Shown in pieces: positions 7,402 through 59,524 of a stretch of 64,000 bases of DNA. Positions within the stretch are counted from its first letter, which is position 1, and every line of letters begins with the position of its first letter. This DNA is from Candidatus Nomurabacteria bacterium GW2011_GWC2_42_20. Lineage in GTDB: Bacteria; Patescibacteriota; Minisyncoccia; Phycocordibacterales; UBA1550. The stretch is taken from NCBI GenBank assembly GCA_000998425.1, contig LCDG01000003.1, forward strand, positions 1,619 to 65,618, written 5' to 3'. The notes beneath the pieces were generated by a model that saw only the letters and a list, made by a program, of their open reading frames with translations, was not told where the DNA came from and ran no database searches. A program made the translations under genes and the position numbers.

Positions 7402-7491
7402 GTGTAGTATCGCAAAAGTTTACAATCTGGTCAATGTTTGTTGAAATCTAATTTGATGATATTAAATATTTAATATGTTATAATTTCAAGC

Positions 7492-8409: not shown

Positions 8410-9752
8410 GACTGTTTAATACACTCTCGCGCTCTATCGAGAAACTCGAGCCGATTAATGATAATGAGATTCGAATGTACCACTGTGGTCCTACAGTTTA
8501 CGACTACGCGCATGTTGGGAACCTACGTGCCTTTATTGTAAATGATACATTGAGACGAACACTTGAGTACCTAAATTACAACGTAAAACAGGTGATGAAC
8601 ATCACAGATGTTGACGACAAAATGATTGCTCGCGCAAGGCAAGAAGGGGTTACGATTCAAGCTCTTGCGCGAGAGTATACAAATTTCCTACTCGCTGATT
8701 TTAAAGCGTTAAATATCCTCACACCACACAAAATACCGCATGCTACCGAGCATATTGGTGGTATGGTCGTGATGATTGAAAAGCTGATTCGCGATGGATA
8801 TGCGTACACTACTTCAGACGGAATATATTTTGATGTTACTAAATCAAAAAATTATGGCTCTCTCGCGCAGCTTGATCTTGACGCAAGCACTGAGTCGCGA
8901 ATAGAGAGTACAGGAGAGAAGAGGTCACATCGAGACTTCGCTCTCTGGAAGTTTGAATCCAAGGACGACAACGGAGTAGCTTATGATGCATCTTTCGGGC
9001 GAGGAAGACCTGGTTGGCATATTGAATGTTCAGAAATGGCATGCGACTCACTTGGAGAAACAATAGATATTCATACAGGTGGTGTTGACCTTATTTTCCC
9101 ACACCACACGAACGAGATTGCACAATCAGAAGCAGTAAATAAGAAGCCTTTTGTGCGTACGTGGGTTCACACTGAATTTGTTATGATAGATGGCCAAAAA
9201 ATGTCTAAATCACTTGGCAATCACACAACACTAAAAACTGTCACAGAGCGTGGCTTCTCCCCCCTCTCCTTTAGATATTTCGTATTAGGCACTCACTATC
9301 GTTCAAAGCTCAATTTTACGTGGGATGCGCTTGATGGCGCTCAGAATGCATTAAAAAAATTAAATGAATCATTTCGCGAACTTCCAGATGGTGGGACCCC
9401 CGTACCGACTGAGCTCGCGAATTTTGAAAATGCTTTATGTAACGATATGCATATTACATGGGTACTTGCGCGCATATGGCAAATCCTAAAAGAGGAACCT
9501 AGTATCCCCCCTGCAGATAAAAAAGCGACAATTCTTGAATTCGACAAGGTGCTAGGTCTTGGACTCGTAAATGTAAAAAAAGAAACGATACCAAGCAATA
9601 TAGTAGCTTTGGCCAAAGCTCGTGAGGAAGCTCGCAAAAATAAGGATTGGATAAAATCGGATAAAATCCGTGAGGAAATCAATTCCCTTGGGTGGAGTGT
9701 TGAGGACACAGATAAGGGCCCAAAAATCATAAGATTAGACGTTCAGGAATAG
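8400..9752 (+). CDS. cysS: cysteine--tRNA ligase
   Basis: HIGH-type motif (CGPTVYDYAHVGNLRAF), zinc-binding Cys, and KMSKS motif (KMSKSLGN). Confidence 0.95.
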   Translation: MDVRLFNTLSRSIEKLEPINDNEIRMYHCGPTVYDYAHVGNLRAFIVNDTLRRTLEYLNYNVKQVMNITDVDDKMIARARQEGVTIQALAREYTNFLLADFKALNILTPHKIPHATEHIGGMVVMIEKLIRDGYAYTTSDGIYFDVTKSKNYGSLAQLDLDASTESRIESTGEKRSHRDFALWKFESKDDNGVAYDASFGRGRPGWHIECSEMACDSLGETIDIHTGGVDLIFPHHTNEIAQSEAVNKKPFVRTWVHTEFVMIDGQKMSKSLGNHTTLKTVTERGFSPLSFRYFVLGTHYRSKLNFTWDALDGAQNALKKLNESFRELPDGGTPVPTELANFENALCNDMHITWVLARIWQILKEEPSIPPADKKATILEFDKVLGLGLVNVKKETIPSNIVALAKAREEARKNKDWIKSDKIREEINSLGWSVEDTDKGPKIIRLDVQE

Positions 9753-44476: not shown

Positions 44477-44534
44477 AGGTTAAGTGTACCAAATTTATAG
44501 CAAACAGAATCATCGCATTGCCTGTTTTTGTTCA

Positions 44535-44544
44535 AAGCTGGGAG
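44535..44544. repeat. degenerate direct repeat of tRNA-Gln 3' end (candidate distal att site)
   Basis: aagctgggag is identical to 50686..50695 at the tRNA-Gln 3' end. The flanking ttgggacgaa resembles the T-arm ttggaatcgaa. Confidence 0.35.
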
Positions 44545-44601
44545 TTTGGGACGAAGTGGGAACTTTATTACTGATAAAAAACTTTCATATTGTTAATGCC
44601 A

Positions 44602-45705
44602 CTAGCTCTGATCCGGCCAGAATTCGATAATAAAATCATGTTTACTATACGGATATCCATCATATTCTTTTACAAAACCATTATTTTTTACACTTATTTT
44701 TGCCTTCATCAAACTTAACGCCTTTTTTACAATAAAAAGACCTATACCTGTTCCATCTTGAGCTATTCCTGACTTATCTTCTTTTGGCTTTTTAACATTT
44801 CTCCCTTGTCTATTTTCTAGAAATATTGTTTCTTTCTCGTCGTCCTCTATAGATACGCTAGTCATCGATAAAATTAATTTTTTAGATCTTGAAGATAGGT
44901 CAGCTGTAATTTCGATGTCAGTGTCGTGTAAAGCATACTTGCTGATATTGTCAAAAATTTGCCATATGACAGCGTTAAATAAACTGTGAACCACATTTAT
45001 TTTATTTAGTGAGGCTAAATCAGTATTTATATTAATATTTATTTCTATATTTTTTTTCCTCAGTTCATCAACAAAAGGATTAGTTAACCGATACATCGCC
45101 TTTTGAATATTTACAGGAAGAAATGAACCTGTACTATCAGCATACCCACCTATGATTCGAAGAGTTTCTATTTGTGCGTCTAAATCTATTGCCCTGTGAG
45201 ACATCTGACATACATCATTAGCAGCTATGTCTGTGTTTTCCTCAATTCTTCTTTTGACCTCATCCTTAAATTCTATATATGGACGTCCCCTGGCTTTGTC
45301 TGAGATGAGCCTATCAAAATTATCTTTAAATCTTCTTTGAAATTTAATTAGGTTGTGAGAAAATCTTCTTGTAACTGCGTCAAATGATTGCCTTTGACTT
45401 GTTGCAATTTGATTAAATTTAGGAATAAAACCTAAATAAATATTACATGATCTTTGAATCGACCTATTCCCTTGAAATAATTCGTGATCAGCTTTAACGA
45501 TTAAACGCACAGATCCGAGACTATTACTTCTGTATATATTTCGGTATCCTTTTTCAGTAAAATTATCATTTTGTGAAATACTAAACTTTTCTGGAAGTGT
45601 ATGGAGTTGCCCGTATCGTGCTACAACACTACCTTTTTCGTTTTGTAGTTCAAAAAATATTATTCCGTCATTATTATCGAGACTCATGAATTTTCTTTGC
45701 GGCAA
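44602..45705 (-). CDS. cytoplasmic histidine-kinase-like protein (GHKL ATPase)
   Basis: No TM helix. Candidate H-box FSHNLIKFQ, N-box-like WQIFDNISKYA, and G2 box GTGIGLFIVKKAL. Overlaps the receiver gene by 32 nt. Confidence 0.65.
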   Translation of the reverse strand: MPQRKFMSLDNNDGIIFFELQNEKGSVVARYGQLHTLPEKFSISQNDNFTEKGYRNIYRSNSLGSVRLIVKADHELFQGNRSIQRSCNIYLGFIPKFNQIATSQRQSFDAVTRRFSHNLIKFQRRFKDNFDRLISDKARGRPYIEFKDEVKRRIEENTDIAANDVCQMSHRAIDLDAQIETLRIIGGYADSTGSFLPVNIQKAMYRLTNPFVDELRKKNIEINININTDLASLNKINVVHSLFNAVIWQIFDNISKYALHDTDIEITADLSSRSKKLILSMTSVSIEDDEKETIFLENRQGRNVKKPKEDKSGIAQDGTGIGLFIVKKALSLMKAKISVKNNGFVKEYDGYPYSKHDFIIEFWPDQS

Positions 45706-46180
45706 CTTCTATCTGATCAACAAAAACAAAGGCGTCAGCGTGTTTATCAATCCAGGCATCAGCAATAGAATGAACCTCGCTTCCTGGGATATGCCCTGCG
45801 TATCCTGAACAAAAAATTATAAACTTCTCAGGGTATCTTTTTTTGATACTTTTAAGTAAGCCTATCCCACTCTCTTTTGGAGTTAAGACATTTCCAACTC
45901 CAACATAATCCATAAAGATAATGTCAGCACTTTTTATATCTTCAGCGTCAAAATTTATAACATCATTAATTTGATTAACATTCCAGCCAGCATTTCTAAT
46001 TGTCGACAGAGTAACACCAAAGTCTTCATCGTCTATAAATAAAATTTTGGTTATTTTTTTTATCTCTTCTATCGACAGTACTTTTTTACCTGAATATTTT
46101 GCTTTTATCCACTTTTCAGCCTTATCCATGCCAACAGTTGCCAATATTGTGCAAACTTTAGTTGCTATTGTTTCTATCAT
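45674..46180 (-). CDS. stand-alone receiver (REC) domain protein with 40-aa N-extension
   Basis: CheY-like strand pattern ILFIDDE (acidic pocket), IIFMDY (phospho-Asp), and IIFCSGY. No output domain. Confidence 0.6.
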   Translation of the reverse strand: MIETIATKVCTILATVGMDKAEKWIKAKYSGKKVLSIEEIKKITKILFIDDEDFGVTLSTIRNAGWNVNQINDVINFDAEDIKSADIIFMDYVGVGNVLTPKESGIGLLKSIKKRYPEKFIIFCSGYAGHIPGSEVHSIADAWIDKHADAFVFVDQIEVAAKKIHESR

Positions 46181-46293: not shown

Positions 46294-46788
46294 TTAAGGA
46301 GTAATTTTAGAATCGATCTGTGTTTTTAAATCCATTTCTTTTGGAATAGAGGTAATATGCAGAATAGGAATACCGCACTGGTTTAGTACTCTATCCACAA
46401 AGCCGTCACGAACCTGCCTCTCTGGTCTTTGGTGTGTGTAATCATCGAGTTCAATGACAAGAACAGGCGAAATATTTTGTTTATCGAAAAGCACAAAGTC
46501 TACTGATTTTTGGTCTATTTTATTTCTGTATCCACCCCTAAGAGAGCCTTTACCTTCAAGCATTACGATTTTATCAAGAGCAAGTTGTGGAAAAATGTAA
46601 TATTTACCATCAACAGCTCGTTCAAGAACACTCAAAAATTCTCGCTCTGCACGAGTAAGTAACCATGTCTTTTTTGAATACGGAAGCCATTCATCTTTTT
46701 CGTTTACCCTCCCACCTTTTCTCGTTAATTCGCCCACAACAAATCCAACAACCGCAACGATGACAGCAAATATAACAAGATTATTCAT
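46294..46788 (-). CDS. membrane-anchored DUF2726/NERD-like nuclease-fold protein
   Basis: N-terminal TM, then FLSVLERAV...FPQLALDKIV...KSVDFVLFDK...PVLVIELDDYTHQRPERQVRDGFVDRVLNQCGIPILH, the DUF2726 pattern. Confidence 0.55.
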   Translation of the reverse strand: MNNLVIFAVIVAVVGFVVGELTRKGGRVNEKDEWLPYSKKTWLLTRAEREFLSVLERAVDGKYYIFPQLALDKIVMLEGKGSLRGGYRNKIDQKSVDFVLFDKQNISPVLVIELDDYTHQRPERQVRDGFVDRVLNQCGIPILHITSIPKEMDLKTQIDSKITP

Positions 46789-47341
46789 GGTTAATATTAT
46801 CTAGAATTATTTTTGCTTCCGCAAGCAAATTTTTAGTTACGCTTAGGTTCCATGCTCGCATCGTGCTATGCCATTTCCGGTATTTAAGAAATTGCTCCCA
46901 TGTTAATTCGATTATTCTTTTAGGTTTATAATTCTTAAATATTTGCACAATAATTACATATTCAAATTTCTTTTCTAGCTGATTAATGTCATTATTATCT
47001 CCGCACCCATAAAATACACCAGTGGTAGTTCCTGGCTCCGAAACTGTTTTAATACTATACCTTTCTCCTTTGCGGCTTAACGCATCAACATTTTGAGTAC
47101 CTTCTGGTGCAGCTTGTAATTTTGACAAGCCAGCTATGAAATTATAAGTTTCTACCGCCAAAAATTCCCCTCTCTCGCCAACCATATTGTTTGTTCTTGC
47201 TAGGTTACGTCTCCTCAACTCTTGTTGGGTTTCACCGTAGTTTAGCCACAACTCCTCATTGTCTAATTGACCTAGATTTATTTTGTTCAAATCTTTATCA
47301 TGAGTAGAATTCTTCTCCTTTTTATTAGTTTCTATTCCCAT
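46781..47341 (-). CDS. hypothetical protein (possible PD-(D/E)xK-like fold)
   Basis: 186 aa; GERGEFLAVETYNF and VDALSRKGERYSIKT are faintly restriction-endonuclease-like. 8-nt overlap with the downstream DUF2726 gene indicates an operon. Confidence 0.4.
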   Translation of the reverse strand: MGIETNKKEKNSTHDKDLNKINLGQLDNEELWLNYGETQQELRRRNLARTNNMVGERGEFLAVETYNFIAGLSKLQAAPEGTQNVDALSRKGERYSIKTVSEPGTTTGVFYGCGDNNDINQLEKKFEYVIIVQIFKNYKPKRIIELTWEQFLKYRKWHSTMRAWNLSVTKNLLAEAKIILDNINHE

Positions 47342-47755
47342 AGCATTACTCTTACATATCCCATTTACTTAGTCCAGCAGAAAAGTGCCATCCTCAATAT
47401 CTTCTTGCTTGCAGAAACCGTATGATACATAATTTAACTATGCCTGCGGGCGAGAGTTTTTTCGACTGTCGATTACCTAAATTGAAGGCAGGCATAACAA
47501 AATAGCTCTCATAACTGAGGGCTTTTTTGCTGTCTAAAAACCGCAAAAATTCCTATATATCTAATGGATTTACATAGCGACCGCTTGCTATCATTAGCAA
47601 GTTAGTGTATTATCAAATTGTAGCTTGACGTCAGAAAATTTCTATCGGCTTGCTGCGGGCATCAATAAAACGATGTACCTATGAGCGAAATGACACATTG
47701 TGTCTGCCGTCGCTCCGAGCTACAAATATAAGCGTCACCTCAACGGGTGGCGCTT

Positions 47756-48208
47756 TTATTTTTTCTTCTTATTTTTCTTAAAATGAACTGAAATTATCTC
47801 AAGCTTCTCGTCTTGTAGTTCAAGGAGAACACGCAGTGACGGTTTCCCGACATGAGAGTAATCTTTTATATAGAAATGTTTTATGGGTGGCTCATATTCG
47901 TAAAAATCAAAATGAGTGATGGTTTCCTGCAGGTTATCTATAGCAAAAAATACAGCCGTCAAAGTCTGCTCTGCTGTGTGATTCTTGCTGAATTCTTTTT
48001 TGCGACTTTCAACAAAATGCTTCAAGGACTTGCGCGAAATATAAACTCTTATATTTTTATGAGGGTGACCTTTATGTTTAGACCCTCGAACGTCAAAGGC
48101 TCGTATTAGCTCAGTATGTTTTTCTATGAAGGATCCATGATCGAGATCGTAATACTCCCTCATTAGCTTTTTTATTTTATTTAATCTTCTTGGAATACTC
48201 GCTATCAT
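47756..48208 (-). CDS. hypothetical protein (lysine-rich C-terminus)
   Basis: 150-aa ORF in the island; no recognisable domain. Confidence 0.4.
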   Translation of the reverse strand: MIASIPRRLNKIKKLMREYYDLDHGSFIEKHTELIRAFDVRGSKHKGHPHKNIRVYISRKSLKHFVESRKKEFSKNHTAEQTLTAVFFAIDNLQETITHFDFYEYEPPIKHFYIKDYSHVGKPSLRVLLELQDEKLEIISVHFKKNKKKK

Positions 48209-48644
48209 AATTGCTCATATTACCATTTTTGACGCCTTGCAGGAATTTTCACGGTTTTGCGTCCATAACAGTGAAAAAGTACTCGAAAATACAACTTTTC
48301 ACGGTTATTACATTGAAGAAAAATTTTTGTTTACCATAATTTCAAAATATGATATATTAGAAGAGCTTGAAGCGTATCGAGTGTAGGCATGTGACGGCAT
48401 CACATGCGAAAAAATTCACTGCATTCTCTACCCCTTACTTCAAGGGGTGTTTCGAGTTTCAAATTCTCACAGGAACTCATCGAGGAAACAATTCAGTGCT
48501 TTAGAGAGGAGAATACTGAAGATATCTCTCCCGAAACCGCAAACGAGTATCTCAACTCGCTTTCGGGTTTTTTCCTTGCGCTTGCTGACAATCCATCCCC
48601 TCATCCAAAAGATGAGAACGGGGATGTTTGATGTACCTATATAA

Positions 48645-48692
48645 ATGCACGCTACTTTCTCGATCCTTAAGGGACGAGAAAGTAGCGTGCAT
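48645..48692. repeat. 48-bp near-perfect palindrome
   Basis: atgcacgctactttctcg (18) + atCCTTAAGGga + cgagaaagtagcgtgcat (18). Arms are perfect and the centre contains the ccttaagg palindrome. Confidence 0.7.
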
Positions 48693-48701
48693 AAGTCAAT
48701 T

Positions 48702-49178
48702 ATGAAAAAGAAGCAACCAAGTTATATAAAACTCTACCGTGCCGACCTTAGTGCCCCGCACATCAAGAACCTCTCTGATCGCGAGTTTAGGCTTTGGGTT
48801 GTCTTAAAAGTTCTTGCTGGTTGGGATCCACGACACGAGGAACACTTCATGGTCGTAAAAAGTTCAATCAGAGACTTGCAAGCGAGCCACCTTCCTACAT
48901 GGAAAAGTTCAGGAAAGTTTAGCTTAACGATTAACCAACTGATTGAGAAAGATATGATTAAGCGCATAGGTGTAGGGAAAATGAAACTTTTGAATCCTGC
49001 TCTACGAGAAGAACAAGATTTTCTTCTCAAGGAACAAAGTGTTCTTCTGGAAGAAAATCTTGTTTCGCAGAAAGAACGGGAACGGGTCAACGAAAAGCTT
49101 CAGGACATCAAAAACCTGCTTGCAAATAACGGTATTTTGAGAAAGCGCGAAAATAATATTCCGCCTAAAGAAATATAA
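48702..49178 (+). CDS. hypothetical DNA-binding (winged-helix-like) protein
   Basis: Start trimmed to the ATG at 48702, downstream of the palindrome. Basic, coiled-coil C-terminus. Sits immediately upstream of the recombinase. Confidence 0.35.
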   Translation: MKKKQPSYIKLYRADLSAPHIKNLSDREFRLWVVLKVLAGWDPRHEEHFMVVKSSIRDLQASHLPTWKSSGKFSLTINQLIEKDMIKRIGVGKMKLLNPALREEQDFLLKEQSVLLEENLVSQKERERVNEKLQDIKNLLANNGILRKRENNIPPKEI

Positions 49179-49239
49179 AGAAAAAAATGAAACTTAAACA
49201 AATATTGCTTCATTTAACCAAGGGGGCTATAGTAATTCC

Positions 49240-50718
49240 ATGAAATACATTATCTACTGTCGAAAATCCACGGAAAGCGAAGACAGACAACTTCTGTCAC
49301 TGGATGCCCAAGAACGGGAGCTTTTGGATATTGCTAATAAGCACAGCCTAGAAATTACAAAAGTTTTTCGCGAGAGCATGTCTGCCAAAGCACCTGGTCG
49401 CCCTATCTTTGACGAGATGATGAAAATCATTGAAAAAGGAAGAGCAGATGCTATCCTCTGTTGGAAAATTGATCGTCTCACGCGTAATCCTGTTGATGGC
49501 GGAAAAATTCAGTGGCTCCTGCAAACGAACAAGATAAAGTGCATTCAGACTTTCGAGAAAAGCTACTTCCCTAATGACAATGTTCTGCTCATGAGTATCG
49601 AGCAAGCAATGGCGAATCAATACATTCGAGACTTGAGCGTGAATGTAAAGCGTGGGCTACGAGAAAAATTGCTTCGTGGAGAATGGCCAAACAAGGCACC
49701 TTTTGGATATACAAACGACAAGGGGTCTAAGTTTGTCATTCCTGATCCTGTTCGTTCAAAATATGTTTCTCGTGCTTTTGAAATCTACCTCACGGGCTCA
49801 CATGGCACAAAAGATATTTCAGAAATTCTTTACAAGGAGGGTTTACGCACGGCTACAGGAAAGAAAATTTTGAAGGGGCGCATTCATAGCATTCTTTCCT
49901 CAATTTTCTACACGGGCATCATGGAAAAAGAAGGAAAATATTATGAAGGCAAACATAAGCCACTCATCTCAAAAGAAACTTTTGAGAAAGCTCAAGATCT
50001 TATGCACGGCCGTTCACGACCCCGCCCACAACGATTATTCTTCCCTCTTCGTGGCTTTCTCAAGTGTGAAAATTGCGGATGCGCCCTCACTGCATCTCTC
50101 AAAAAAGGTCATCACTATTACTACTGCACGGGAAACAGAGACTTTTGCAATGAACACAAAAGCTACATGCGAGAGGTGTACCTATATGAGAAAGTTTCTG
50201 CTGTCCTCGAATCAATTCATTTTTCAGAACGCAAGATCGAGATTATGTATCAGGCGGCCAAGGAGAGACTCGAGTTTGATAATGGGTACAACAACCAGAC
50301 TATATCCACCCTCCAAAACCATTTAAAATCGCTTGAGACGAAAGAATCCCTTTTGCTCGACACTTTCCTCGCTGAACAGATTACAAAGGATTTATACGAC
50401 GCTAAAATCCTCGCTTTGCGTAATGAGCGAGTTCAAGTTACCAAGCAACTCAAAGAAGCCGAATCACGACAACCTGTCGCGCTGTTGGAACCTACCAAAA
50501 ATGCTTTTTTAACCGCTAGTAGAGCCTCAAAAGAGTTTTTAGAAGGCGACGATTTGAAGAAAAGAAATATCCTAGAAAGTCTCTGTTGGAACCTTTCGCT
50601 CAAAGAGAAAAATATCCATACAGTGTCGCTCAAAAGTCCTTTCGACATCATGTCAAAAGCATCGAAAAATGACGGTTTGTGCACTAAGCTGGGAGGCTTG
50701 GAATCGAACCAAGATTGA
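49240..50718 (+). CDS. large serine recombinase
   Basis: Resolvase catalytic domain with Ser in YCRKSTESEDRQ, DRLTRN motif, recombinase domain, and zinc ribbon (CENCGC...YYYCTG). The C-terminus overlaps the tRNA-Gln 3' end. Confidence 0.9.
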   Translation: MKYIIYCRKSTESEDRQLLSLDAQERELLDIANKHSLEITKVFRESMSAKAPGRPIFDEMMKIIEKGRADAILCWKIDRLTRNPVDGGKIQWLLQTNKIKCIQTFEKSYFPNDNVLLMSIEQAMANQYIRDLSVNVKRGLREKLLRGEWPNKAPFGYTNDKGSKFVIPDPVRSKYVSRAFEIYLTGSHGTKDISEILYKEGLRTATGKKILKGRIHSILSSIFYTGIMEKEGKYYEGKHKPLISKETFEKAQDLMHGRSRPRPQRLFFPLRGFLKCENCGCALTASLKKGHHYYYCTGNRDFCNEHKSYMREVYLYEKVSAVLESIHFSERKIEIMYQAAKERLEFDNGYNNQTISTLQNHLKSLETKESLLLDTFLAEQITKDLYDAKILALRNERVQVTKQLKEAESRQPVALLEPTKNAFLTASRASKEFLEGDDLKKRNILESLCWNLSLKEKNIHTVSLKSPFDIMSKASKNDGLCTKLGGLESNQD

Positions 50719-50759
50719 CGGCTTCAAAGGCCGCTGTCCTACCATTAGACGATCTCCCA
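50689..50759 (-). tRNA. tRNA-Gln (UUG)
   Basis: Hand-folded cloverleaf: U1-A72 first pair as in bacterial tRNA-Gln, D-arm GUCU/AAUGGUA/GGAC, anticodon stem GCGGC/GCCGU with loop CUUUGAA, T-arm CUUGG UUCGAUU CCAAG, discriminator G; CCA not encoded. Confidence 0.85.
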
Positions 50760-50800
50760 AAGTTGCATTGTCTTACACAATACATTACCCATGCAACTGT

Positions 50801-51835
50801 TTACGCTCCACATATGCGGAGTAGCGCAATTTCCAAAGCAAGACCAGGCACGACTGCCACACGCACACTTTCGTAGGTTCGCAGGAGCTCTGCCAGCTCT
50901 TTTGATGTTAAGGTTTGAATTGCGTTTTTAGACATGTCTTCAATGAGCGCCATATCCTCTTGAGAAAAATCATCCGCCATTCCTTTGCGCGAGTCGGTAA
51001 CAAAACGAAACATCATTACCGCGCGCATTTTTCTAAGAAGAAGGTCAAGAAAAGTTTTTTCATCTACACCGCGTTCCATAGCAGTTTTTAATGATGTAAG
51101 TCCAGACGAAACATCACGGGCAACAATAGCGCGAAGGAACGAATTTACAAGGCGACTATCAGGCGCGCCTGTCACTTTCTCAACCTCCTCCTGTGAAATC
51201 TTTTTATCAGATGATGATGCGATAACCTTTTGCAAAATGCCAAGCGTATCGCGGAATGAACCATCTCCAAGAAGCGCAATAAGGCCCGCAGATGCTGGCT
51301 CTAATGTGTATCCCTCTTTTTTTGAAACAGTCTCAACGAGAGTTTTTAGTATTGCCTGAGAAGGTTTCTCAAAACGAAAACTCTGGCAACGCGAAACAAT
51401 TGTTTCTGGAATCTTATTTTCATCGGTAGTAGCTAGGATGAACACAACATGGCGTGGCGGTTCCTCAAGTGTTTTCAAGAGCGCAGGAAACGCCTCTCTC
51501 GAGAGCATGTGCGCCTCGTCGATAATGTATACTTTGTACGGAGAATGCATTGGCACCGTATGAACCGCGTCGCGAAGCGCGCGTATGTCGTCAATGCCAC
51601 GATTGGACGCAGCGTCAATTTCGTAAATGTCGTCATCGTGCGACCCTATCGCTCGTGCAAAGATGCGCGCAATAGAAGTCTTGCCAGTACCACGCGAGCC
51701 ACAAAAAAGATACGCATGAGAAATTGAACCTGCTTTAATAGCACCAAGTAGAGCTTTAATCACCTGCTCCTGCCCTATTACCTCTTCAAAAGTTTTTGGG
51801 CGATATTTCGTATACAGTGCGAGATTGGAAGACAT
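50801..51835 (-). CDS. dnaX: DNA polymerase III subunit gamma/tau (short form)
   Basis: YRPKTFEEVIGQE, Walker A GSRGTGKTS, DEAH box; 344 aa, domains I-III only. Confidence 0.85.
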   Translation of the reverse strand: MSSNLALYTKYRPKTFEEVIGQEQVIKALLGAIKAGSISHAYLFCGSRGTGKTSIARIFARAIGSHDDDIYEIDAASNRGIDDIRALRDAVHTVPMHSPYKVYIIDEAHMLSREAFPALLKTLEEPPRHVVFILATTDENKIPETIVSRCQSFRFEKPSQAILKTLVETVSKKEGYTLEPASAGLIALLGDGSFRDTLGILQKVIASSSDKKISQEEVEKVTGAPDSRLVNSFLRAIVARDVSSGLTSLKTAMERGVDEKTFLDLLLRKMRAVMMFRFVTDSRKGMADDFSQEDMALIEDMSKNAIQTLTSKELAELLRTYESVRVAVVPGLALEIALLRICGA

Positions 51836-51904
51836 GGTTGGTAGAATATAGAATATTGAATATAGAATATAGAATTAAATTCAATAATCGTTAGTATATC
51901 ACAA

Positions 51905-51936
51905 AGAAAAAACCCCGCGAAGTGCGGGGTTTCAAT
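51905..51936 (-). terminator. intrinsic terminator (minus strand) upstream of dnaX
   Basis: ccccgcga agt gcgggg hairpin followed on the minus strand by a T-run. Confidence 0.5.
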
Positions 51937-51960
51937 TAGCTTCTTATTCTTACATCTTAC

Positions 51961-52206
51961 CTAATCTTGAACAACGGTCTTATTTTTTACAAATTCCATT
52001 TCGCTCAAAAGATTTCCATGTTTATTTTCGGCACTGAGCAATTCTTGACGGAGAGCATCTCTTTCGATACTCAGTTCAATCCTTTGCATAAGGTATGGAA
52101 GCTCGTCTATTTTTATTTGAACCTGTTTCAACCGTTCGCGTATCGCAGACTCTTCATTTTTTGCAAGGGTGCAGATGGAGCTCAGTTCTCCAATTTCCAT
52201 TTTCAT
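51961..52206 (-). CDS. hypothetical coiled-coil protein
   Basis: 81 aa, heptad-like pattern, terminated by the hairpin above. Confidence 0.3.
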   Translation of the reverse strand: MKMEIGELSSICTLAKNEESAIRERLKQVQIKIDELPYLMQRIELSIERDALRQELLSAENKHGNLLSEMEFVKNKTVVQD

Positions 52207-52269
52207 AACACACCAAACCTTTCCTGTTTAAATGTTAGCAAATAGACTTTCCTAACTAGCAAACACAGT

Positions 52270-52644
52270 TCATGAGTAGTTAAGCAGGGTATTCTCACAA
52301 ATGGATGCGAGGGCAAAGCATTTCTGCAGGAAAGGTGAGTCCGAGATACTTATCCATTCTGGTGGTGTTTGCGAGAAGCTTGCTAGCTTGAACTTCTCGG
52401 CAAAATTAATTATTTCAACACCATCTGTTATTTCCTTGAGAATCGGTGCTGGATAATTATCAAATTCAAATAGACAATATTCTGCATATTCTAGATTGTC
52501 ATATGCAAAAACCCAATGACGCGAATCTGTAGTTTCTGCCGATGGCCGATATGCAAAGAAAATTCTCTTGTGCCCGTTTTCCGCCTTTACTTCAATGATC
52601 AAATTATGGCACTCAAAGTGCCGCACCACTTTCGCGAGAAGCAT
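52270..52644 (-). CDS. hypothetical protein
   Basis: 124-aa ORF, no recognisable domain. Confidence 0.35.
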   Translation of the reverse strand: MLLAKVVRHFECHNLIIEVKAENGHKRIFFAYRPSAETTDSRHWVFAYDNLEYAEYCLFEFDNYPAPILKEITDGVEIINFAEKFKLASFSQTPPEWISISDSPFLQKCFALASICENTLLNYS

Positions 52645-52712
52645 TTTGAGCCACCTTTCTTTTTAAAATTTACCTAATCAAAAAATACCACAACTAGCAG
52701 GTGACGTCAAAA

Positions 52713-53759
52713 CTAAATCGTCTTCAAAAAATCGCGAGCGATGCGCTCCACTTCATCGGCATTTTTTGCATCCATCATGTGTACGCGAAGCTCCTTTGCT
52801 CCGTCAAATCCATGCACGTATGCTTTATAGTGTTTTTTCATGATCGCAAAATTCTTTATGTCACCAAGAAGTTTTTCATAGAGATGCGTATGCTCAATGA
52901 GAATCTCAAATTTTTCTTCTAAGCTCGGAGGTTCTTTACGCATGCGGTCAAAAAGCCATGGAGTTCCAAACATAGCACGACCAAGCATCACACCGTCTGC
53001 TCCAGTTGCATCTACTTTTGATTTTGCATCGGCGAGGTCTTTTACGTCGCCATTACCAATGATTAGCGTACCCGTACCCTCTGCGAGTTTTTTAGCGCGT
53101 GCCACGTAGTCCCATTGCGCTGGAACAAGCGAGAGCTCCTTGCGTGTGCGCGCATGCACAGTGATCACAGCGGGTTTTGTTTCAAGTATTGCGCCGATCC
53201 ATTCCTCTAGACTTTCTTTGTTGTATCCGATACGTGTCTTTACAGACACAGGAAGCCCTCCAGCACCCTCCATTGTTGCTCGAATACATTCCTGAGCGAG
53301 TTTTGGATTTTTAATATGTGCTGCTCCTGCTCCTTGCTTCTCAATACTTTTGTCGGGGCAACCCATATTAATGTCTATACCATCAAAGCCGAGTTCTTTG
53401 ATAAGCTCTGCAGTTTTTTTCATATGCTCTGGGGTAGAACCAAAGATCTGCGCAACAATTGGATGTTCGTTTTTACTAAATGCAAGGTCGCGCTTTAAAA
53501 CCTCACGACCTGCGCTACAAAGACCGTCCGCAGAAACAAACTCTGTCCAAAAAACATCTGGGCCGCCACCTATCTCACCATGACGACTGTATTTTGCAAT
53601 CATCTGGCGGAACGCACAGTCGGTCACATCCGCCATCGGTGCAGACACAAAAAATGGCTTTGGCAATTTCGCCCAAAATCCCATATTTGGCGTCATAGAA
53701 TTATTTTTCACAACCTTACTCATTGCATGCACTCTAGCATACACAAACCAATCTTTCAT
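52713..53759 (-). CDS. dus: tRNA-dihydrouridine synthase
   Basis: FVSAPMADVTDCAFR N-terminal motif and TIM-barrel Cys (NMGCP). The start may be an internal Met. Confidence 0.85.
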   Translation of the reverse strand: MKDWFVYARVHAMSKVVKNNSMTPNMGFWAKLPKPFFVSAPMADVTDCAFRQMIAKYSRHGEIGGGPDVFWTEFVSADGLCSAGREVLKRDLAFSKNEHPIVAQIFGSTPEHMKKTAELIKELGFDGIDINMGCPDKSIEKQGAGAAHIKNPKLAQECIRATMEGAGGLPVSVKTRIGYNKESLEEWIGAILETKPAVITVHARTRKELSLVPAQWDYVARAKKLAEGTGTLIIGNGDVKDLADAKSKVDATGADGVMLGRAMFGTPWLFDRMRKEPPSLEEKFEILIEHTHLYEKLLGDIKNFAIMKKHYKAYVHGFDGAKELRVHMMDAKNADEVERIARDFLKTI

Positions 53760-53793
53760 CTATTGTATGACAGTAGATGATGAAAAGGTAAAC

Positions 53794-54654
53794 TTAATTT
53801 TCAAAACCGAAAATAACCTTGCTCCCAAATCTCATATCTATATAAAGAAGCTTTTTCTTTAAAGCTGTATTCTCTGGGAATTTGGCAGGGATTGATGAGA
53901 GAAGATTTTTTAGCAGATATTCAGGTTGAGAATCTTCCTTGAATCGTATCGTAACCCCATCAAGAAAAGGATGCTCTGCGCTCGTATGAATAGTAATCTC
54001 AAATTCTCCATTTTCCTTAACTAAAATACGAAATGGCCTTCCTATGTTGTCGCGAAGAATCCCAGAAAATTTGTCGGCAAATGCAAAACGATTAGTTGGA
54101 AGCGTGCTTCGCAAGTGCTCACCAATATTTTTTTCCACAAGCTCACTATAAAATTCAATATATATGCCACTTGGGAAAATTGGTGCTTGGTCAAAAACAA
54201 AACCATCCTTGTCTATAAACCAGCAATTCTTGGATTGATCTTTCTCGATATCAAATTGTGCACCACACCAAAGCGCATACGGCTTGCGCTCTGTTGCAAT
54301 GATTCCAATCGTATTATTATCAATGCGTTTTATGTGAACGCTTTCGAGTCTTGGAAATGTTTCTAGGAGAGCTTGCTCAATATCTTTTTTGGGGAACAAA
54401 TAACTATTTCCTCTAGAATATACAAAAAAATAATTACCAGTAAGCTTTTGACGAGCAATGGAGCGTACCATATCTTCTGATACAACATTTGTTTCAGAAA
54501 TTTCTATATTTTCGACTCGCCATTTAGCATTTTGCGATACACCCCCGCCAGCAACAAAAAATAGCAAAAAAAGCACTACAAGAATAAGTGTTTTACTTAA
54601 CCACACCCCAAAATGCTCTCTAATCTTATTAGCAACTGTGTGAAATCTTTCCAT
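53794..54654 (-). CDS. ftsQ: FtsQ/DivIB-like cell division protein (POTRA)
   Basis: Single N-terminal TM then a POTRA-like region (VENIEISETNVVSEDMV). Lies between dus and serS. Confidence 0.5.
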   Translation of the reverse strand: MERFHTVANKIREHFGVWLSKTLILVVLFLLFFVAGGGVSQNAKWRVENIEISETNVVSEDMVRSIARQKLTGNYFFVYSRGNSYLFPKKDIEQALLETFPRLESVHIKRIDNNTIGIIATERKPYALWCGAQFDIEKDQSKNCWFIDKDGFVFDQAPIFPSGIYIEFYSELVEKNIGEHLRSTLPTNRFAFADKFSGILRDNIGRPFRILVKENGEFEITIHTSAEHPFLDGVTIRFKEDSQPEYLLKNLLSSIPAKFPENTALKKKLLYIDMRFGSKVIFGFEN

Positions 54655-54680
54655 AAAAAAGGAACTGTGTGGGGCTCACG

Positions 54681-55946
54681 TTATCCGATTTTTTCTTTAC
54701 CTCCCATATATGGGCGAAGAACCTCTGGAATAATAATGCTTCCGTCCTCCTGTTGGAAATTTTCAACAAGCGGTACGAGGATACGTGGACATGCAATCGC
54801 AGTGTTGTTGAGCGAGTGCGCGAAACGAAGCTTACCTTCGGCATCTCGATAACGAATATTCAAACGACGAGTCTGAAAGTCATGGAAGTATGAAGCCGAG
54901 TGAGTCTCACGATAAGTGTTTTGTGATGGTACCCATGCTTCGATGTCATATTTTTTAACCTGTCCAAGACCAAGGTCCCCACCACAGTTCAACACTACGT
55001 GATACGGAATGCCAAGCTTCTGCATCAGCTTCTCGCTATTCTCCGTGAGATACTCATGGAATTTCACGCTCTCCTCGTGGCTCGCCTCACACAGGATCAC
55101 TTGCTCCCATTTGAAAAATTCATGAACACGAATTAAGCCTTTTGTGTCCTTACTGTGGCTCCCCGCCTCACGTCTAAAACTCGTCGAGAATGAAATATAT
55201 TTTTTAGGAAAATCTGACAATGAGAGTACCTCGTCCATATGGTACCCCATTGTAGCCACCTCAGCAGTGCCTGCGAGAAAATCTCCGTCTTGAGTTTTAT
55301 AAAGATCTTCTTCACCCTGTGGCAAAAAACCAGTGCCAATGAGCGGTGCACGTCGTACAAGTGATGGCACAATCATCGGTTCGAATCCTTCTTTAGAAAG
55401 TTCGTTCAACACAAATTGCGAGAGTGCAAACACAAGCCTTGCTCCATCACCCTTCAAAACATAGCCACGAAAACCAGCGACCTTTGTCCCACGTTCAAAA
55501 TCCGCCATATCGTGTTTTTCAAAAAGCTCAATGTGATCTTTTGGTGTAAATGAAAATGTTGGAATTGTCCCCCATGTTCTTACCTCCACATTGTCAGAGT
55601 CTTCTTTACCATCAGGTACAGACATATCAGGAATATTTGGTACTTGAACCATGAGTCCGTGCCATGTTTTCATAATCTCAGCGAGCTCTTCCTCCTTTTT
55701 TTGCAGGATATCCTTTGCTGATTTTGATTCCGCGATAAGTTTTTCTCGCTCCTCTTGATTTATTGCGCGAGGAACAGCATTTGCAATTTCATTTTGCTTG
55801 CCACGCATTGCCTCAACATCTGCAAGATGAGCTCTGCGTGCATCGTCAACAGTGACGAGCTCTGAAACATCAAATGTGATATTTTTTTTCTGAGCTGCCT
55901 CCTTTACTAATTCTGCGTTCTCGCGAATAAATTTAATGTCTAACAT
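54681..55946 (-). CDS. serS: serine--tRNA ligase
   Basis: Start trimmed to MLDIKFIRENAELVKEAA (canonical SerS N-terminus); class II motifs in the C-terminal catalytic domain. Confidence 0.9.
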   Translation of the reverse strand: MLDIKFIRENAELVKEAAQKKNITFDVSELVTVDDARRAHLADVEAMRGKQNEIANAVPRAINQEEREKLIAESKSAKDILQKKEEELAEIMKTWHGLMVQVPNIPDMSVPDGKEDSDNVEVRTWGTIPTFSFTPKDHIELFEKHDMADFERGTKVAGFRGYVLKGDGARLVFALSQFVLNELSKEGFEPMIVPSLVRRAPLIGTGFLPQGEEDLYKTQDGDFLAGTAEVATMGYHMDEVLSLSDFPKKYISFSTSFRREAGSHSKDTKGLIRVHEFFKWEQVILCEASHEESVKFHEYLTENSEKLMQKLGIPYHVVLNCGGDLGLGQVKKYDIEAWVPSQNTYRETHSASYFHDFQTRRLNIRYRDAEGKLRFAHSLNNTAIACPRILVPLVENFQQEDGSIIIPEVLRPYMGGKEKIG

Positions 55947-55984
55947 ATCCTGAAGTATACCAAACATGATAGAATGAGTAAATA

Positions 55985-56857
55985 ATGAAGGCATCACATT
56001 CATACACCATTGATACGCTCTCACGCGAGGAATTCCCTCCTGCTCTTTTAGAAATCCCTCAGGTGCCAGAAAAACTCTTCGTTGCTGGTGAGCTACCCAA
56101 TCCTTCTGAATACTACTATTTGTCTGTTGTTGGCTCTCGAAAATACACGAGCTATGGGAAGGAGGTGTGTGAGCGAATTATATCTGGGCTCGCTGGATAT
56201 CCTATTTGTATTGTGTCTGGGCTCGCAATGGGTATTGATGGCATTGCACACCGTGCAGCACTCGATGCAGGACTTCGTACAATCGCTGTACCTGGCTCGG
56301 GACTTGATCAGTCTGTCATTTATCCGCGCACACATCTTGGGCTTGCAAAAGAAATTATAGAAAATGGTGGCACTCTTCTTTCTGAATATGAGCCGGACTT
56401 TCGTGCGACACCATGGAGCTTCCCACAGCGCAACAGGATCATGGCAGGACTCTCGCAAGGGGTTCTAATTATAGAGGCCGAGGAAAAATCTGGCACACTT
56501 ATCACCGCGCGCATGGCTCTCGACTACAACAGAAATGTATTTACTGTCCCGGGTCCGATTTTTTCTGCGACCTCAAAAGGGACGAACAATCTTTTGCGAC
56601 AAGGCGCTACGCCTATCACCTCTGCAAAAGATTTGCTTGAGGAGATTGGATTTATAGAGCAACAAACAGGCACCCTAGACCTCACACTTTTCACACCCGA
56701 AGAGCAAGCAATCATCATTTTACTCGACGAGCCTCTTGCGCGCGAAGACATCCTCGCATCACTCGACACTCCGCCAGCACAAACACTTTCAACCCTCACA
56801 GTACTAGAAATCAAAGGCGTGATCCATGAACGTATGGGGAAAATTGAACGAGTATAA
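55985..56857 (+). CDS. dprA: DNA processing protein DprA
   Basis: Rossmann-like DprA core (GLAMGIDGIAHRAALDAG, PGSGLD) and C-terminal winged-helix-like tail. Confidence 0.85.
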   Translation: MKASHSYTIDTLSREEFPPALLEIPQVPEKLFVAGELPNPSEYYYLSVVGSRKYTSYGKEVCERIISGLAGYPICIVSGLAMGIDGIAHRAALDAGLRTIAVPGSGLDQSVIYPRTHLGLAKEIIENGGTLLSEYEPDFRATPWSFPQRNRIMAGLSQGVLIIEAEEKSGTLITARMALDYNRNVFTVPGPIFSATSKGTNNLLRQGATPITSAKDLLEEIGFIEQQTGTLDLTLFTPEEQAIIILLDEPLAREDILASLDTPPAQTLSTLTVLEIKGVIHERMGKIERV

Positions 56858-56962
56858 TTTCAAACTATCAGCCTCTTTTGTTTGACAAAAATATAATATA
56901 GTGCTATGCTTGCTTTAGAATCGTGACATTGTGTTGCGATAAATCCTAAGGAGGATCAAGAG

Positions 56963-57211
56963 ATGGACAGAGACTTTACCGTAATTGCAGTGCTTGTTGT
57001 AATCAGCGCAATTGCCGTGCTGGCAACAAAAGTGTACTTGGGTAACACTGTGGCTGGCATTGTCACAATTGTGGCAACAATTTTTGTCGCTGGCAAATGC
57101 CTTCTTTCATTAATGACAATAACAAAGCAAGAAAAAAATGCATTAGCCAAGAAGAATGGTTCTGAGGATATTTCATTCGCCCCGGTTGGGAGGATGTCTC
57201 AGTTCCCATAG
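56963..57211 (+). CDS. small membrane protein
   Basis: 82 aa, two hydrophobic helices; followed by a strong terminator. Confidence 0.3.
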   Translation: MDRDFTVIAVLVVISAIAVLATKVYLGNTVAGIVTIVATIFVAGKCLLSLMTITKQEKNALAKKNGSEDISFAPVGRMSQFP

Positions 57212-57228
57212 CAGCAAAGTATGAATAA

Positions 57229-57269
57229 TACCCTTTGCAAAACTAGGTTTTGTGAAGGGTATTTTTTTA
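57229..57269 (+). terminator. Rho-independent terminator
   Basis: ataccctt tgcaaaactaggttttgtg aagggtat followed by T7. Confidence 0.55.
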
Positions 57270-57316
57270 CTTTTCAATTTGCAAAATAAATCACTTCATA
57301 GTACTAATGTAATTTA

Positions 57317-59524
57317 ATGGCAACCAAACAATACAAACTCCTCATCGTAGAATCGCCGTCAAAGGCGAAGACTATTGGGAAATATCTTGGGGACGAATAT
57401 GTTGTAAAGGCGAGCGTTGGGCATATTCGCGACCTTCCAAAATCAAACAAGCAAGCTATCGATATCCCCGGGGGCTTTATTCCTTTTTACGAAATCTCAA
57501 AAGGTAAATCCGATGTGGTGCATGAGATTGACTCACTTGCAAAGAAAGCGAGCGAGGTGCTTCTTGCAACCGACCCTGACCGTGAAGGTGAGGCTATCGC
57601 ATGGCACATTGCAGAAGCATGCGGTCTAAAAAAACCAAAGCGTGTCACCTATCACGAGATCACCAAGAGTGCCATAGAGGAAGCCATCGCGCATCCACGC
57701 GAGATTGATGCCAACCTTGTGAAAGCGCAGGAGGCGCGACGCGTTCTAGACAGACTCGTGGGATACGACCTCTCGGGTCTCATTTGGAAAAAAGTTCGCT
57801 ACGGTCTCTCGGCAGGGCGCGTGCAATCCCCCGCTCTCCGCATTATCATGGAGCGCGAGCGTGAAATCCGTGCCTTTATTCCAGAGGCGTATTGGACCCT
57901 CACAGCAAAAGTAAAAACAATGAAAGGCGCCGAGCTTGAGCTTTCATGCACAGAGGAACCCAGTGATGAATCAATCGTAAAAAATATCCTAAAAATAGGT
58001 CGCGCAAATCAGTGGGTTGTGCGTGAGGTAAAAGAAAGCGAGGTGGGCCGTTCACCAAAGGCACCATTCATTACTTCTACACTTCAGCAGGCTGGTTCTT
58101 CACGCTTTGGATTTGCACCGTCACGCACTATGGGTATCGCGCAAAAGCTTTACGAAAAAGGTTTCATTACCTACATGCGTACCGACAGCACAACTCTCTC
58201 TAAAGACGCAACCACCGCGATACTTGCAGAAATTACGAAACGCTATGGCGCACAGTCAGCTGAGGCACGCGTGTATAAAACCAAGAGCAAAAATGCCCAA
58301 GAAGCGCACGAGGCTATACGCCCTACCGACGTGAGTAAGGACAACCTCGGCATCAATCCCGAAGAACAAAAGCTTTACCGTCTCATTTGGGCGCGAACCA
58401 TTGCATCACAAATGGTGGACGCGAAGCTTGCAAGAACAACAATACTCGCTAATGTGCGAGATTTCAGCGTGCCAAACTTTTCTGTCACTGGTTCGCGTGT
58501 CATCACACAAGGATGGCTTGCCGCAGATCCTGACTCTCGTAGTGAGGATGTCGAACTTCCAAAAGTTGCTGAAGGTGAGTCGCTCATTCTACTTTCTCTC
58601 GATGATGAGGCAAAATTTACCGAGCCACCAGGACGCTACTCTGAAGCAGGTCTCGTGAAGGAGCTTGAAAAGCGCGACATCGGTCGTCCTTCTACGTATG
58701 CGTCTATTATTAAAACGATTCAGGATCGTGGCTATGTCATTAAAGATGGTAAAGCACTCAAGCCGACAGACACGGGGGACGTCGTGAGCTCATTCCTCGA
58801 GGAACATTTTGCAAACTATATTTCAGACACCTTCACATCAGAGATGGAGAACAAGCTCGACGATATAGCAAACGGCGAGCGCGAGTATGTAAAAACACTC
58901 AAGGATTTTTATGGTCCATTTTCCAAAGACCTCAAGGCAAAAGACAAGTTAGATAAACAGACGACTCTCGGCGACGCAGACCCACAACACAAATGTCCAA
59001 AATGCAACAGCCCGATGATAATCAAGCTCGCGCGTACGGGGAAGTTTCTCTCGTGTAAAAAATATCCTGACTGCGACGGCGCGCGCATGATAGACGGCAC
59101 CGAGCTTGCCGGCCCGCGCGATACTGGAGAGCTTTGTCCAAAATGTGGAAAATCAAACCTATTTGAACGTGATGGGCGATTTGGAAGATTCATTGCCTGC
59201 GGCAATTATCCAAAATGTAAACATATTAAAAAAGACGAGACTGCCGCGCTCCTCAACCACACGGGTGTCCCCTGCCCAATGTGTAAAAAGGGTTTTATGA
59301 CAGAGCGCAAGGGTCGCTTTGGAATTTTTTATAGTTGTACTGGCTACCCAGACTGCAAAAATGCAATCAAAGCAAGGCCGACAGGCAGAATTTGTGAGTA
59401 TCCAAAAATTGACGGCACCCCTTGCGACTCACTCATGATGGAAGGCACGAAGACAATTCCAGAACGCTGTTCAAATAAATTGTGCCCAAACCATAATCCA
59501 CATAAACTAGAGAAGGTGAGCTAG
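57317..59524 (+). CDS. topA: DNA topoisomerase I
   Basis: Toprim (ESPSKAKTI), catalytic Tyr region, and three C-terminal C4 zinc ribbons. Confidence 0.95.
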   Translation: MATKQYKLLIVESPSKAKTIGKYLGDEYVVKASVGHIRDLPKSNKQAIDIPGGFIPFYEISKGKSDVVHEIDSLAKKASEVLLATDPDREGEAIAWHIAEACGLKKPKRVTYHEITKSAIEEAIAHPREIDANLVKAQEARRVLDRLVGYDLSGLIWKKVRYGLSAGRVQSPALRIIMEREREIRAFIPEAYWTLTAKVKTMKGAELELSCTEEPSDESIVKNILKIGRANQWVVREVKESEVGRSPKAPFITSTLQQAGSSRFGFAPSRTMGIAQKLYEKGFITYMRTDSTTLSKDATTAILAEITKRYGAQSAEARVYKTKSKNAQEAHEAIRPTDVSKDNLGINPEEQKLYRLIWARTIASQMVDAKLARTTILANVRDFSVPNFSVTGSRVITQGWLAADPDSRSEDVELPKVAEGESLILLSLDDEAKFTEPPGRYSEAGLVKELEKRDIGRPSTYASIIKTIQDRGYVIKDGKALKPTDTGDVVSSFLEEHFANYISDTFTSEMENKLDDIANGEREYVKTLKDFYGPFSKDLKAKDKLDKQTTLGDADPQHKCPKCNSPMIIKLARTGKFLSCKKYPDCDGARMIDGTELAGPRDTGELCPKCGKSNLFERDGRFGRFIACGNYPKCKHIKKDETAALLNHTGVPCPMCKKGFMTERKGRFGIFYSCTGYPDCKNAIKARPTGRICEYPKIDGTPCDSLMMEGTKTIPERCSNKLCPNHNPHKLEKVS

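Follow-up and report, generated by a model that had tools for sequence, protein, structure and literature searches.

A receiver and a histidine-kinase-like protein on a Patescibacterial integrative island: a divergent member of the candidate defence cassette PDC-M43

Two overlapping genes on the minus strand of contig LCDG01000003.1 from Candidatus Nomurabacteria bacterium GW2011_GWC2_42_20 encode a receiver-like protein and a histidine-kinase-like protein. The receiver gene comes first and the kinase-like gene lies downstream. The pair occupies one end of an integrative island in the window, by which we mean the whole 64,000-nucleotide stretch of DNA that was analysed. By profile matches to both proteins, it is a divergent Patescibacterial member of the catalogued candidate cassette PDC-M43. 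Both open reading frames (ORFs) and their domain architecture are as an initial annotation, made from the letters of the sequence, had described them (Table 1). That annotation saw in the pair a soluble kinase with a buffer-like receiver, and either an incomplete relative of the Detocs defence system or an undescribed module.

Profiles of the PADLOC database for both halves of the cassette match the window proteins. Profile PDLC04646 (PDC-M43A) matches the receiver at E 1.7e-28 over residues 24-162, and PDLC04644 and PDLC04645 match it too. Profile PDLC04647 (PDC-M43B) matches the kinase-like protein at E 2.2e-29, aligning residues 10-362 with profile positions 9-341 of 347, and three further PDC-M43B profiles match the same protein. 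The other PADLOC match is a marginal one, of PDC-M69A to the receiver (E 0.027). PDC-M43 calls for adjacent A and B genes on one strand, and this is how the two genes lie. The cassette is listed as CAS_00151, FAM_00604>>FAM_02649, with a count of 72 (Payne et al., bioRxiv 10.1101/2024.01.29.577857, supplementary table 8). PDC entries were defined by their embedding in BREX, DISARM or type I restriction-modification (RM) loci (bioRxiv 10.1101/2024.01.29.577857). The module is thus not an undescribed one; it is already catalogued, and mechanistically uncharacterised. By the same matches, what is new here is the divergent Patescibacterial branch, PDC-M43 being already known as a candidate cassette. 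M43 is not among the candidates in two papers that assayed PADLOC candidates, and an Aravind-lab paper on conflict systems does not describe the window kinase-receiver family. Literature searches on kinase/receiver defence systems yielded only Detocs and a mention in a DefensePredictor figure legend, apparently of a Detocs-type system.

Table 1. Features of the receiver and kinase-like gene pair and of the island that carries it, in window coordinates
Feature	Position	Strand	Evidence or remark
Histidine-kinase-like gene (PDC-M43B)	44602..45705	-	Longest ORF, 367 aa from TTG at 45705
N-terminal beta-rich domain, putative sensor (residues ~12-93)	45427..45672	-	AlphaFold model
DHp helical hairpin (residues 94-186; helices 94-133 and 143-186)	45148..45426	-	Model and alignment
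GHKL catalytic domain, alpha/beta (residues 196-362)	44620..45120	-	Model, Pfam HATPase_c, alignment
Receiver-like gene (PDC-M43A), 168 aa	45674..46180	-	Overlaps kinase-like gene
Receiver (beta-alpha)5 domain (residues 44-166)	45683..46051	-	Model, Foldseek, alignment
Receiver N-terminal extension (residues 1-29)	46094..46180	-	Two helices; transmembrane-anchor counterpart in most relatives
DUF2726 (nuclease-fold) gene, island cargo, outside the pair	46294..46788	-	Pfam E 9.4e-27
Methyl-directed type II restriction enzyme-like gene (PADLOC mREase_II), island cargo	46781..47341	-	PADLOC E 1.6e-55
Island ORF, 150 aa	47756..48208	-	No significant match in Pfam, PADLOC, NCBIfam, PHROGs
Island ORF, 177 aa	48645..49178	+	No significant match in Pfam, PADLOC, NCBIfam, PHROGs
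Large serine recombinase	49240..50718	+	Pfam Resolvase, Recombinase and Zn_ribbon_recom; PHROG integrase E 6e-80
tRNA-Gln(ttg), integration target	50688..50759	-	3' part overlaps end of recombinase gene
Degenerate copy of tRNA-Gln 3' end and downstream bases, distal att-like boundary	44519..44558	.	Repeat and alignment

The window pair shares with PDC-M43 the gene order, the strand, the overlap and the conserved residues, including an MxS motif in place of the G1 box of the kinase. It differs from typical members in that its clade is rare and divergent (some 60 protein clusters when grouped at 90% identity, mainly of Patescibacteria). The transmembrane (TM) anchor and low-complexity linker of the typical receiver have shrunk in the window receiver to a helical, moderately hydrophobic extension of about 30 residues. 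In the H box of the window kinase-like protein, position H+4 is occupied by Lys instead of Ser or Thr.

The start of the kinase-like gene lies further in than its longest ORF suggests. Homologues, and a 99%-identical protein of 361 aa (P0001), start at the ATG that corresponds to 45687. This ATG, and not the TTG at 45705, is likely the true start, which would give a protein of 361 aa. From this start, the kinase-like and receiver genes overlap by 14 nucleotides (nt), as in loci L004 and L006; the 32 nt reported initially holds for the longest ORF. The AlphaFold model of the protein (pLDDT 90.2, pTM 0.81) has three parts, namely an N-terminal beta-rich domain, a DHp hairpin and a GHKL catalytic domain. 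No TM helix is present in the kinase-like protein, as first described; its highest Kyte-Doolittle mean over 19 residues is 1.26.

The N-terminal domain is modelled as strands at residues 15-22, 27-31, 49-51, 54-60 and 64-71, with a helix at 80-92. Neither a profile of this domain against the PDB nor single sequences against Pfam gave a significant match, and the best was the VAMP7 longin domain (E 0.26). Kinase residues 1-244 gave no TPR or any other Pfam match. The domain is homologous throughout the family, the PADLOC match spanning kinase residues 10-362. On these searches, it is a novel domain of about 90 aa, without sequence relatives in either Pfam or the PDB. An uncharacterised N-terminal region of about 170 aa had been proposed. 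That description is apt for the novel domain, and the remainder proved to be a recognisable DHp hairpin bearing His117. In a subset of the broader family (L014, L016, L018, L031, L043, L048, L051 and others), the loop between strands 2 and 3 of the domain carries a four-cysteine cluster, CxxC...C...CP, which the window clade lacks. This cluster is possibly a metal site or a variable sensing loop.

Most of the catalytic residues of a two-component kinase are in place. His117 (codon 45355-45357) sits in the first DHp helix within the motif RRF[S/A]HNL and is kept in 68 of 68 sequences. A Pfam scan of the window proteins gave no HisKA match on the kinase-like protein. The same scan matched HATPase_c to residues 245-341 at 29.5 bits (cut-off 26.4 bits), and NCBIfam gave weak, sub-threshold similarity to many sensor kinases. 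In the N box, D252, N253 (44947-44949), K256 and Y257 are invariant, N253 and K256 in all 68 sequences. The G2 box, G318-x-G320-I-G322-L (44740-44754), keeps its three glycines in 65 to 68 of the 68, so the GHKL ATPase with a clear G2 box stands as annotated. The G1 box is different. Its DxG is absent, with M281-x-S283 (44857-44865) instead, and a profile alignment sets the family's M-x-S-x-S-I opposite the D-T-G-T-G-I and D-C-G-R-G-I of SrrB and BceS. Because Met281 and Ser283 are near-invariant across the superfamily (66/68 and 67/68), MxS in this position is a conserved substitution and not decay. The DHp histidine, the N box and the G2 box of a two-component kinase are therefore present, and the G1 box is not.

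Relatives of this protein are few. We found 53 at 46% identity or more, nearly all of about 350 aa and mostly from Patescibacteria metagenome-assembled genomes. A profile run against 5.8 billion proteins yielded no more than a handful of further close relatives, and the close clade occurs at 3 loci in 185,579 species-representative genomes. No match came from tblastn with the window kinase as query in collections of plasmids and phages, nor from a scan of IMG/VR with the close-clade kinase alignment.

The receiver protein has no Pfam match at all, Response_reg included, and in NCBIfam it shows weak, sub-threshold similarity to the receiver portions of CckA and CpdR. Its family profile matches receiver domains among solved structures (best E 3.7e-5). 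In its model (pLDDT 83.3), strands and helices follow the (beta-alpha)5 order, with D91 at the end of beta3, and the best 50 Foldseek matches of this model in the PDB are all receiver domains, with probability 1.0. Since profile, model order and Foldseek agree, the REC fold is confirmed despite the Pfam miss, and with it the initial picture of a receiver behind an N-terminal extension of some 40 aa. The active site consists of D50/D51 (46028-46033), the phospho-acceptor D91 (45908-45910), S125 (45806-45808) and K146 (45743-45745). These residues and E52 are invariant in the close receiver family (25 sequences aligned). In the broad family (58 sequences), D91 and K146 are invariant and D50, D51 and S125 are kept in at least 90%. 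The CheY-like fold, the acidic pair, the Asp, the Ser/Thr and the Lys of a receiver are thus all present. A conserved six-residue insertion, G-V-G, follows the phospho-acceptor Asp. Thirty-five close relatives were found, and an identical protein (100%) is on record from 'Parcubacteria group bacterium GW2011_GWC1_42_11'. One close-clade receiver, P0079 (258 aa), has an N-terminal extension of about 90 aa that starts with a stretch similar to the C-terminus of another receiver domain; this may be a mis-called start or the remnant of a tandem receiver.

The extension in front of the receiver domain (about 30-40 aa) begins with a moderately hydrophobic helix, followed by a Lys-rich stretch. The 17-residue Kyte-Doolittle mean of this helix is 1.36; it contains a Lys and is modelled with a pLDDT of about 62. 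In the wider family, the same position holds a more distinct module. An exhaustive profile search of 1.84 billion representatives gave 962 relatives of the receiver with E <=0.001, of which 435 reach E <=1e-10, and N- and C-terminal modules were counted in the best 149 of the 962. A strong N-terminal TM helix is present in 88/149, followed by a low-complexity linker and then the receiver domain, and this helix often bears the motif W-[IV]-F-S-G-[IV]-G-V. Sixteen of the 149 have a weaker hydrophobic segment, and in 11 the receiver comes first, with a C-terminal extension that ends in a hydrophobic tail.

One relative carries a TIR domain. At L081 (4807-6826), an ORF of 596 aa comprises an N-terminal region of no recognised kind, a TIR_2 domain (residues 240-367) and a PDC-M43A-type receiver (395-530). 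The TIR domain scores above the Pfam threshold (E 3e-11) and shares 36% identity with plasmid proteins annotated as TIR. The last 229 nt of the contig, after this ORF, encode the beginning of the kinase-like N-domain. By its domain order, this ORF indicates that a classical immune effector domain can occupy the place of the TM helix on the receiver. Further TIR-receiver fusions were sought on plasmids and none was found. Since the N-terminal extension is mostly a TM anchor and once a TIR domain, the receiver protein is the likely output of the pair and not a buffer, as it had first been described; it carries the sole candidate output.

Receiver and kinase-like protein behave as one unit across the family. 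In all 8 distinct close-clade contexts, the kinase-like gene lies immediately downstream of the receiver gene. A broader survey covered 80 metagenome loci, obtained by a scan with a receiver alignment of 20 closer sequences. Where at least 1 kb of downstream sequence is available, 60 of 61 loci have a kinase-like gene (338-376 aa) directly after the receiver on the same strand, and these genes match the profile of the window family at E 1e-17 to 1e-40. The gap between the two genes in the broad family ranges from -62 to +30 nt and is most commonly -4. The proteins also diverge together. Their pairwise distances correlate with r=0.857, a value that none of 999 Mantel permutations reached, and with r=0.78 within the broad family alone. 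No third gene recurs, since no neighbour family appears in more than 3 of 75 loci. Because the pairing is near-constant, the proteins co-diverge and no neighbour family recurs, there is no missing third component of the REC-effector kind that the initial annotation had looked for. By these comparative criteria, the pair is a self-contained, horizontally mobile phospho-signalling module, complete as two genes. A scan for promoters and terminators around the window pair did no better than on shuffled sequence.

The surroundings of the pair change entirely from one locus to the next. The cassette is distributed over Patescibacteria, Auribacterota, Gammaproteobacteria, plasmids and prophages. In the close clade, one pair lies between DprA and TopA, and another has gone into the L5-S8 interval of a ribosomal protein operon (L008, 3931-5464; L009, 212-1745), with no recombinase or other accessory gene close by. 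At a further locus the neighbours are an Mrr nuclease and a TIR protein that binds cNMP. Other pairs adjoin two TIR genes of the ThsB type along with a caspase-like peptidase and a serine recombinase, a DNA methylase accompanied by IS91 and an integrase, or MazG-like and SLFN-helicase genes. Among the 149 broad-family neighbours, the commonest families are type I RM specificity subunits, Eco57I, N6_Mtase, AAA_21, transposases and integrases.

Several copies are on known mobile elements. A conjugative IncF plasmid of E. coli, pZ1322MEC0001-2, carries the pair between IS3 and Tn3 transposases, with NACHT, DUF3800 and pentapeptide-repeat genes a few kb away (L094, record 46513-59418). The two proteins (WP_341486241.1 and WP_169782976.1) are annotated there as 'hypothetical protein' and 'HAMP domain-containing histidine kinase', and megablast found no counterpart of this copy in complete E. 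coli genomes. On a Shewanella conjugative plasmid, pSBAL11701, the pair (WP_014620399.1 and WP_014620398.1) adjoins HigBA. Eight IMG/VR contigs also carry the pair. One P2-like prophage (L098, 3844-9429) has it, at 6273-7991, between the replication nickase gene gpA and the portal gene gpQ, the interval that holds old/tin in phage P2. By tblastn, the same placement is found in L027, L028, L097, L099 and L100. The gpA-gpQ interval is a documented anti-phage hotspot of P2-like phages (PMC9122126, PMC13586616). The defence-type reading first proposed is thus supported by the setting of relatives in this hotspot, on conjugative plasmids and beside RM, TIR and other defence genes. Contexts are mobile and variable, the partner is consistently a PDC-M43A-type receiver, and the receiver fold holds.

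We read the pair as probably a minimal two-component module for abortive infection or defence, a reading built on sequence comparison and structural models. The soluble kinase-like protein would form a DHp dimer, and its His117 would set the phosphorylation of Asp91 in the translationally coupled receiver. The kinase N-domain (~90 aa) is the likely input and would sense an infection-related cue. The receiver domain would in turn control the self-association or activity of the module attached to it. Most relatives have one helix across the membrane as this module; the window clade has a short hydrophobic helix, and one relative a TIR domain. Infection would flip this switch, leading to membrane damage, or to loss of NAD+ in the TIR variant, and phage production would stop. 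The parts of this model that we infer are its action against phage, what triggers it, whether the switch works as kinase or phosphatase, and the effect on the membrane. The membrane-effector step taken by itself is doubtful.

Known systems resemble the pair in parts. Detocs consists of three genes, a TPR kinase DtcA, a buffer receiver DtcB and a receiver with a C-terminal effector, DtcC (Rousset et al., bioRxiv 10.1101/2023.01.24.525353). The DtcC effector is a PNP in 80% of cases, and TM effectors are a minority in Detocs (bioRxiv 10.1101/2023.01.24.525353). The window pair is like Detocs in using two-component phosphotransfer as a stand-alone conflict module with an interchangeable receiver-attached effector, and in conserving the phospho-His (H117, 68/68) and the phospho-Asp (D91, in the 25 close and 58 broad sequences). 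It differs in having two genes and no buffer receiver, with DUF2726 and mREase_II as neighbours. The kinase is about 350 aa, with a small novel beta-rich N-domain (~80 aa) in place of TPRs. The 168-aa receiver protein has no PNP; its effector module is N-terminal to the receiver and minimal, a single helix. The G1 Asp is absent from the window kinase, and there is no sequence-level membership in Detocs.

A classical HisKA kinase with a single-domain regulator, such as HK853/RR468, CheY or Spo0F, is a second point of comparison, and the window pair shares the fold of such a pair. Unlike in those pairs, the window domains are missed by Pfam HisKA and Response_reg, MxSxx[I/V] stands for the G1 motif DxGxG, and the six-residue G-V-G insertion follows the phospho-acceptor Asp. 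The cassette has no DNA-binding or enzymatic output and is tied to no regulon. The TM effectors of CBASS, Pycsar and type II Thoeris resemble the receiver protein in layout. These join a small regulatory domain to one or few TM helices, occur in defence hotspots and are thought to be activated by induced oligomerisation, with nucleotide second messengers as the switch. In PDC-M43A the switch would instead be phosphorylation, and the membrane activity is only predicted.

Several points weigh against the defence model. One TM helix offers little from which to build a pore-forming effector, and in the window clade membrane insertion is itself uncertain because of the modest hydrophobicity, the Lys and the low pLDDT of the N-terminal helix. 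With the adenine-binding G1 Asp replaced by Met in 66/68 sequences, autophosphorylation from ATP is not assured, and signalling may run in either direction, kinase or phosphatase. The TIR-receiver fusion is a single case at a contig end. Three close-clade loci have housekeeping surroundings (DprA/TopA, the ribosomal protein operon and a dCMP deaminase). The PADLOC profiles match the window proteins only remotely (E ~1e-29), against E 1e-60 to 1e-170 for typical relatives. The source paper presents its 145 PDCs explicitly as untested candidates (bioRxiv 10.1101/2024.01.29.577857), and no paper text naming PDC-M43 turned up in the literature searched. The loss of the G1 Asp can also be built into the model. 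The PDC-M43 kinase could then be mainly a phosphatase, a scaffold or a user of a phosphodonor other than ATP, which restrains the membrane-anchored receiver until infection lifts or reverses this restraint, and phosphorylation-dependent clustering of the single helix, or of the TIR domain in variants, would kill or arrest the cell. We hold this version to be rather unlikely.

Two coupled genes that are self-contained, patchily distributed and inserted at unrelated sites could also form an addiction module of the toxin-antitoxin kind. The membrane-targeted receiver would be a latent toxin, and the kinase-like protein would neutralise it, as a phosphatase or by binding. The cassette would then mainly stabilise the elements that carry it, which overlaps with abortive infection without dedicated phage sensing. 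The ribosomal-operon copy with no other defence gene nearby and the HigBA genes beside the pair on the Shewanella conjugative plasmid fit this account, and the missing G1 Asp suits a kinase-dead phosphatase or scaffold. A mere binding partner, however, would not be expected to keep its N and G2 boxes invariant, and the kinase-like protein retains a conserved sensor-like N-domain. Placement in the P2 gpA-gpQ hotspot and at RM loci is, moreover, typical of defence cargo, and we consider an addiction module unlikely. The canonical phosphotransfer residues of both proteins would equally suit an ordinary regulatory pathway, in which the receiver signals to proteins of the host or the element by direct contact, in the manner of CheY, Spo0F or DivK, for instance to control the island or a prophage. 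Single-domain receivers are common in signalling, and housekeeping genes surround the pair at some loci. Such a pathway is nevertheless distinctly improbable. No partner gene is conserved in the 75 loci, the cassette moves between phyla and contexts and occupies hotspots for accessory defence cargo, and its receivers form a separate family that Response_reg misses and bear a hydrophobic anchor or, in one case, a TIR domain.

A soluble kinase with a receiver-only protein on a defence-type island also brings to mind an incomplete or decayed Detocs, with a DtcA-like kinase and a DtcB-like buffer receiver left after loss of the DtcC effector. This was the initial suggestion, and it is highly implausible. 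Detocs by definition needs its three genes, and no third gene recurs at the loci surveyed. The kinase, at about 350 aa, lacks TPRs, the pair is intact across at least 60 protein clusters, and PADLOC matches only PDC-M43, bar the marginal PDC-M69A. The broader idea of a defensive two-component logic fared better, as the PDC-M43 match and the hotspot contexts make defence the best-supported reading.

To our knowledge, characterised anti-phage systems based on phosphotransfer comprise one family only, Detocs. If the defence model is true, PDC-M43 would be a second and simpler phosphotransfer defence, made of two small proteins with no buffer and a membrane-helix output. If PDC-M43 is such an abortive-infection switch, the window version would be a stripped-down form of it in the ultra-small Patescibacteria. 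With this analysis, what was an anonymous database entry becomes a concrete model, which names His117, Asp91, Met281 and the N-terminal helix as key sites. It also identifies copies in tractable settings, on the E. coli IncF plasmid, on the Shewanella plasmid and in P2-like prophages. Why a Met is conserved at the position of the G1 Asp is a question of general interest for GHKL enzymes, and a divergent copy on an integrative island of a Patescibacterium adds to the sparse record of immunity in this group.

The island that carries the pair has a GC content of 0.33-0.36, against about 0.42 in the flanks. It has the three recombinase domains and the att-like repeats at a tRNA gene that mark a serine-recombinase island. 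The direct repeat D2 joins 44519-44551 to 50670-50702, with the core AAGCTGGGAG. This repeat of the tRNA 3' end is imperfect and measures 33-40 nt, with its copies 6.15 kb apart, and the copy at 44519-44558 lies right past the stop codon of the kinase-like gene. Because the degenerate copy marks the far boundary, the island is about 6.15 kb long. With the recombinase gene ending within tRNA-Gln(ttg), the 3' end of this tRNA comes from the island. The degenerate copy is, to judge from the alignment, the displaced original 3' end, surviving in degenerate form. The mobile-island setting first proposed is supported by the low GC, the serine recombinase, tRNA-Gln, the att-like repeat and the DUF2726 and mREase_II neighbours.

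Elsewhere, too, the pair is found 30-210 nt downstream of tRNA-Gln(ttg), at L001 (tRNA at 9381-9452), L004 (9407-9478) and L003 (600-672), one of these loci belonging to a Bdellovibrionaceae bin. Elements bearing the cassette seem to land repeatedly at tRNA-Gln. Among the other cargo of the window island, the mREase_II and DUF2726 genes overlap by 8 nt and together (46294-47341, minus strand) look like a second, separate defence module. The ORF at 48645-49178 lies just upstream of the recombinase gene and might encode a recombinase accessory or directionality factor.

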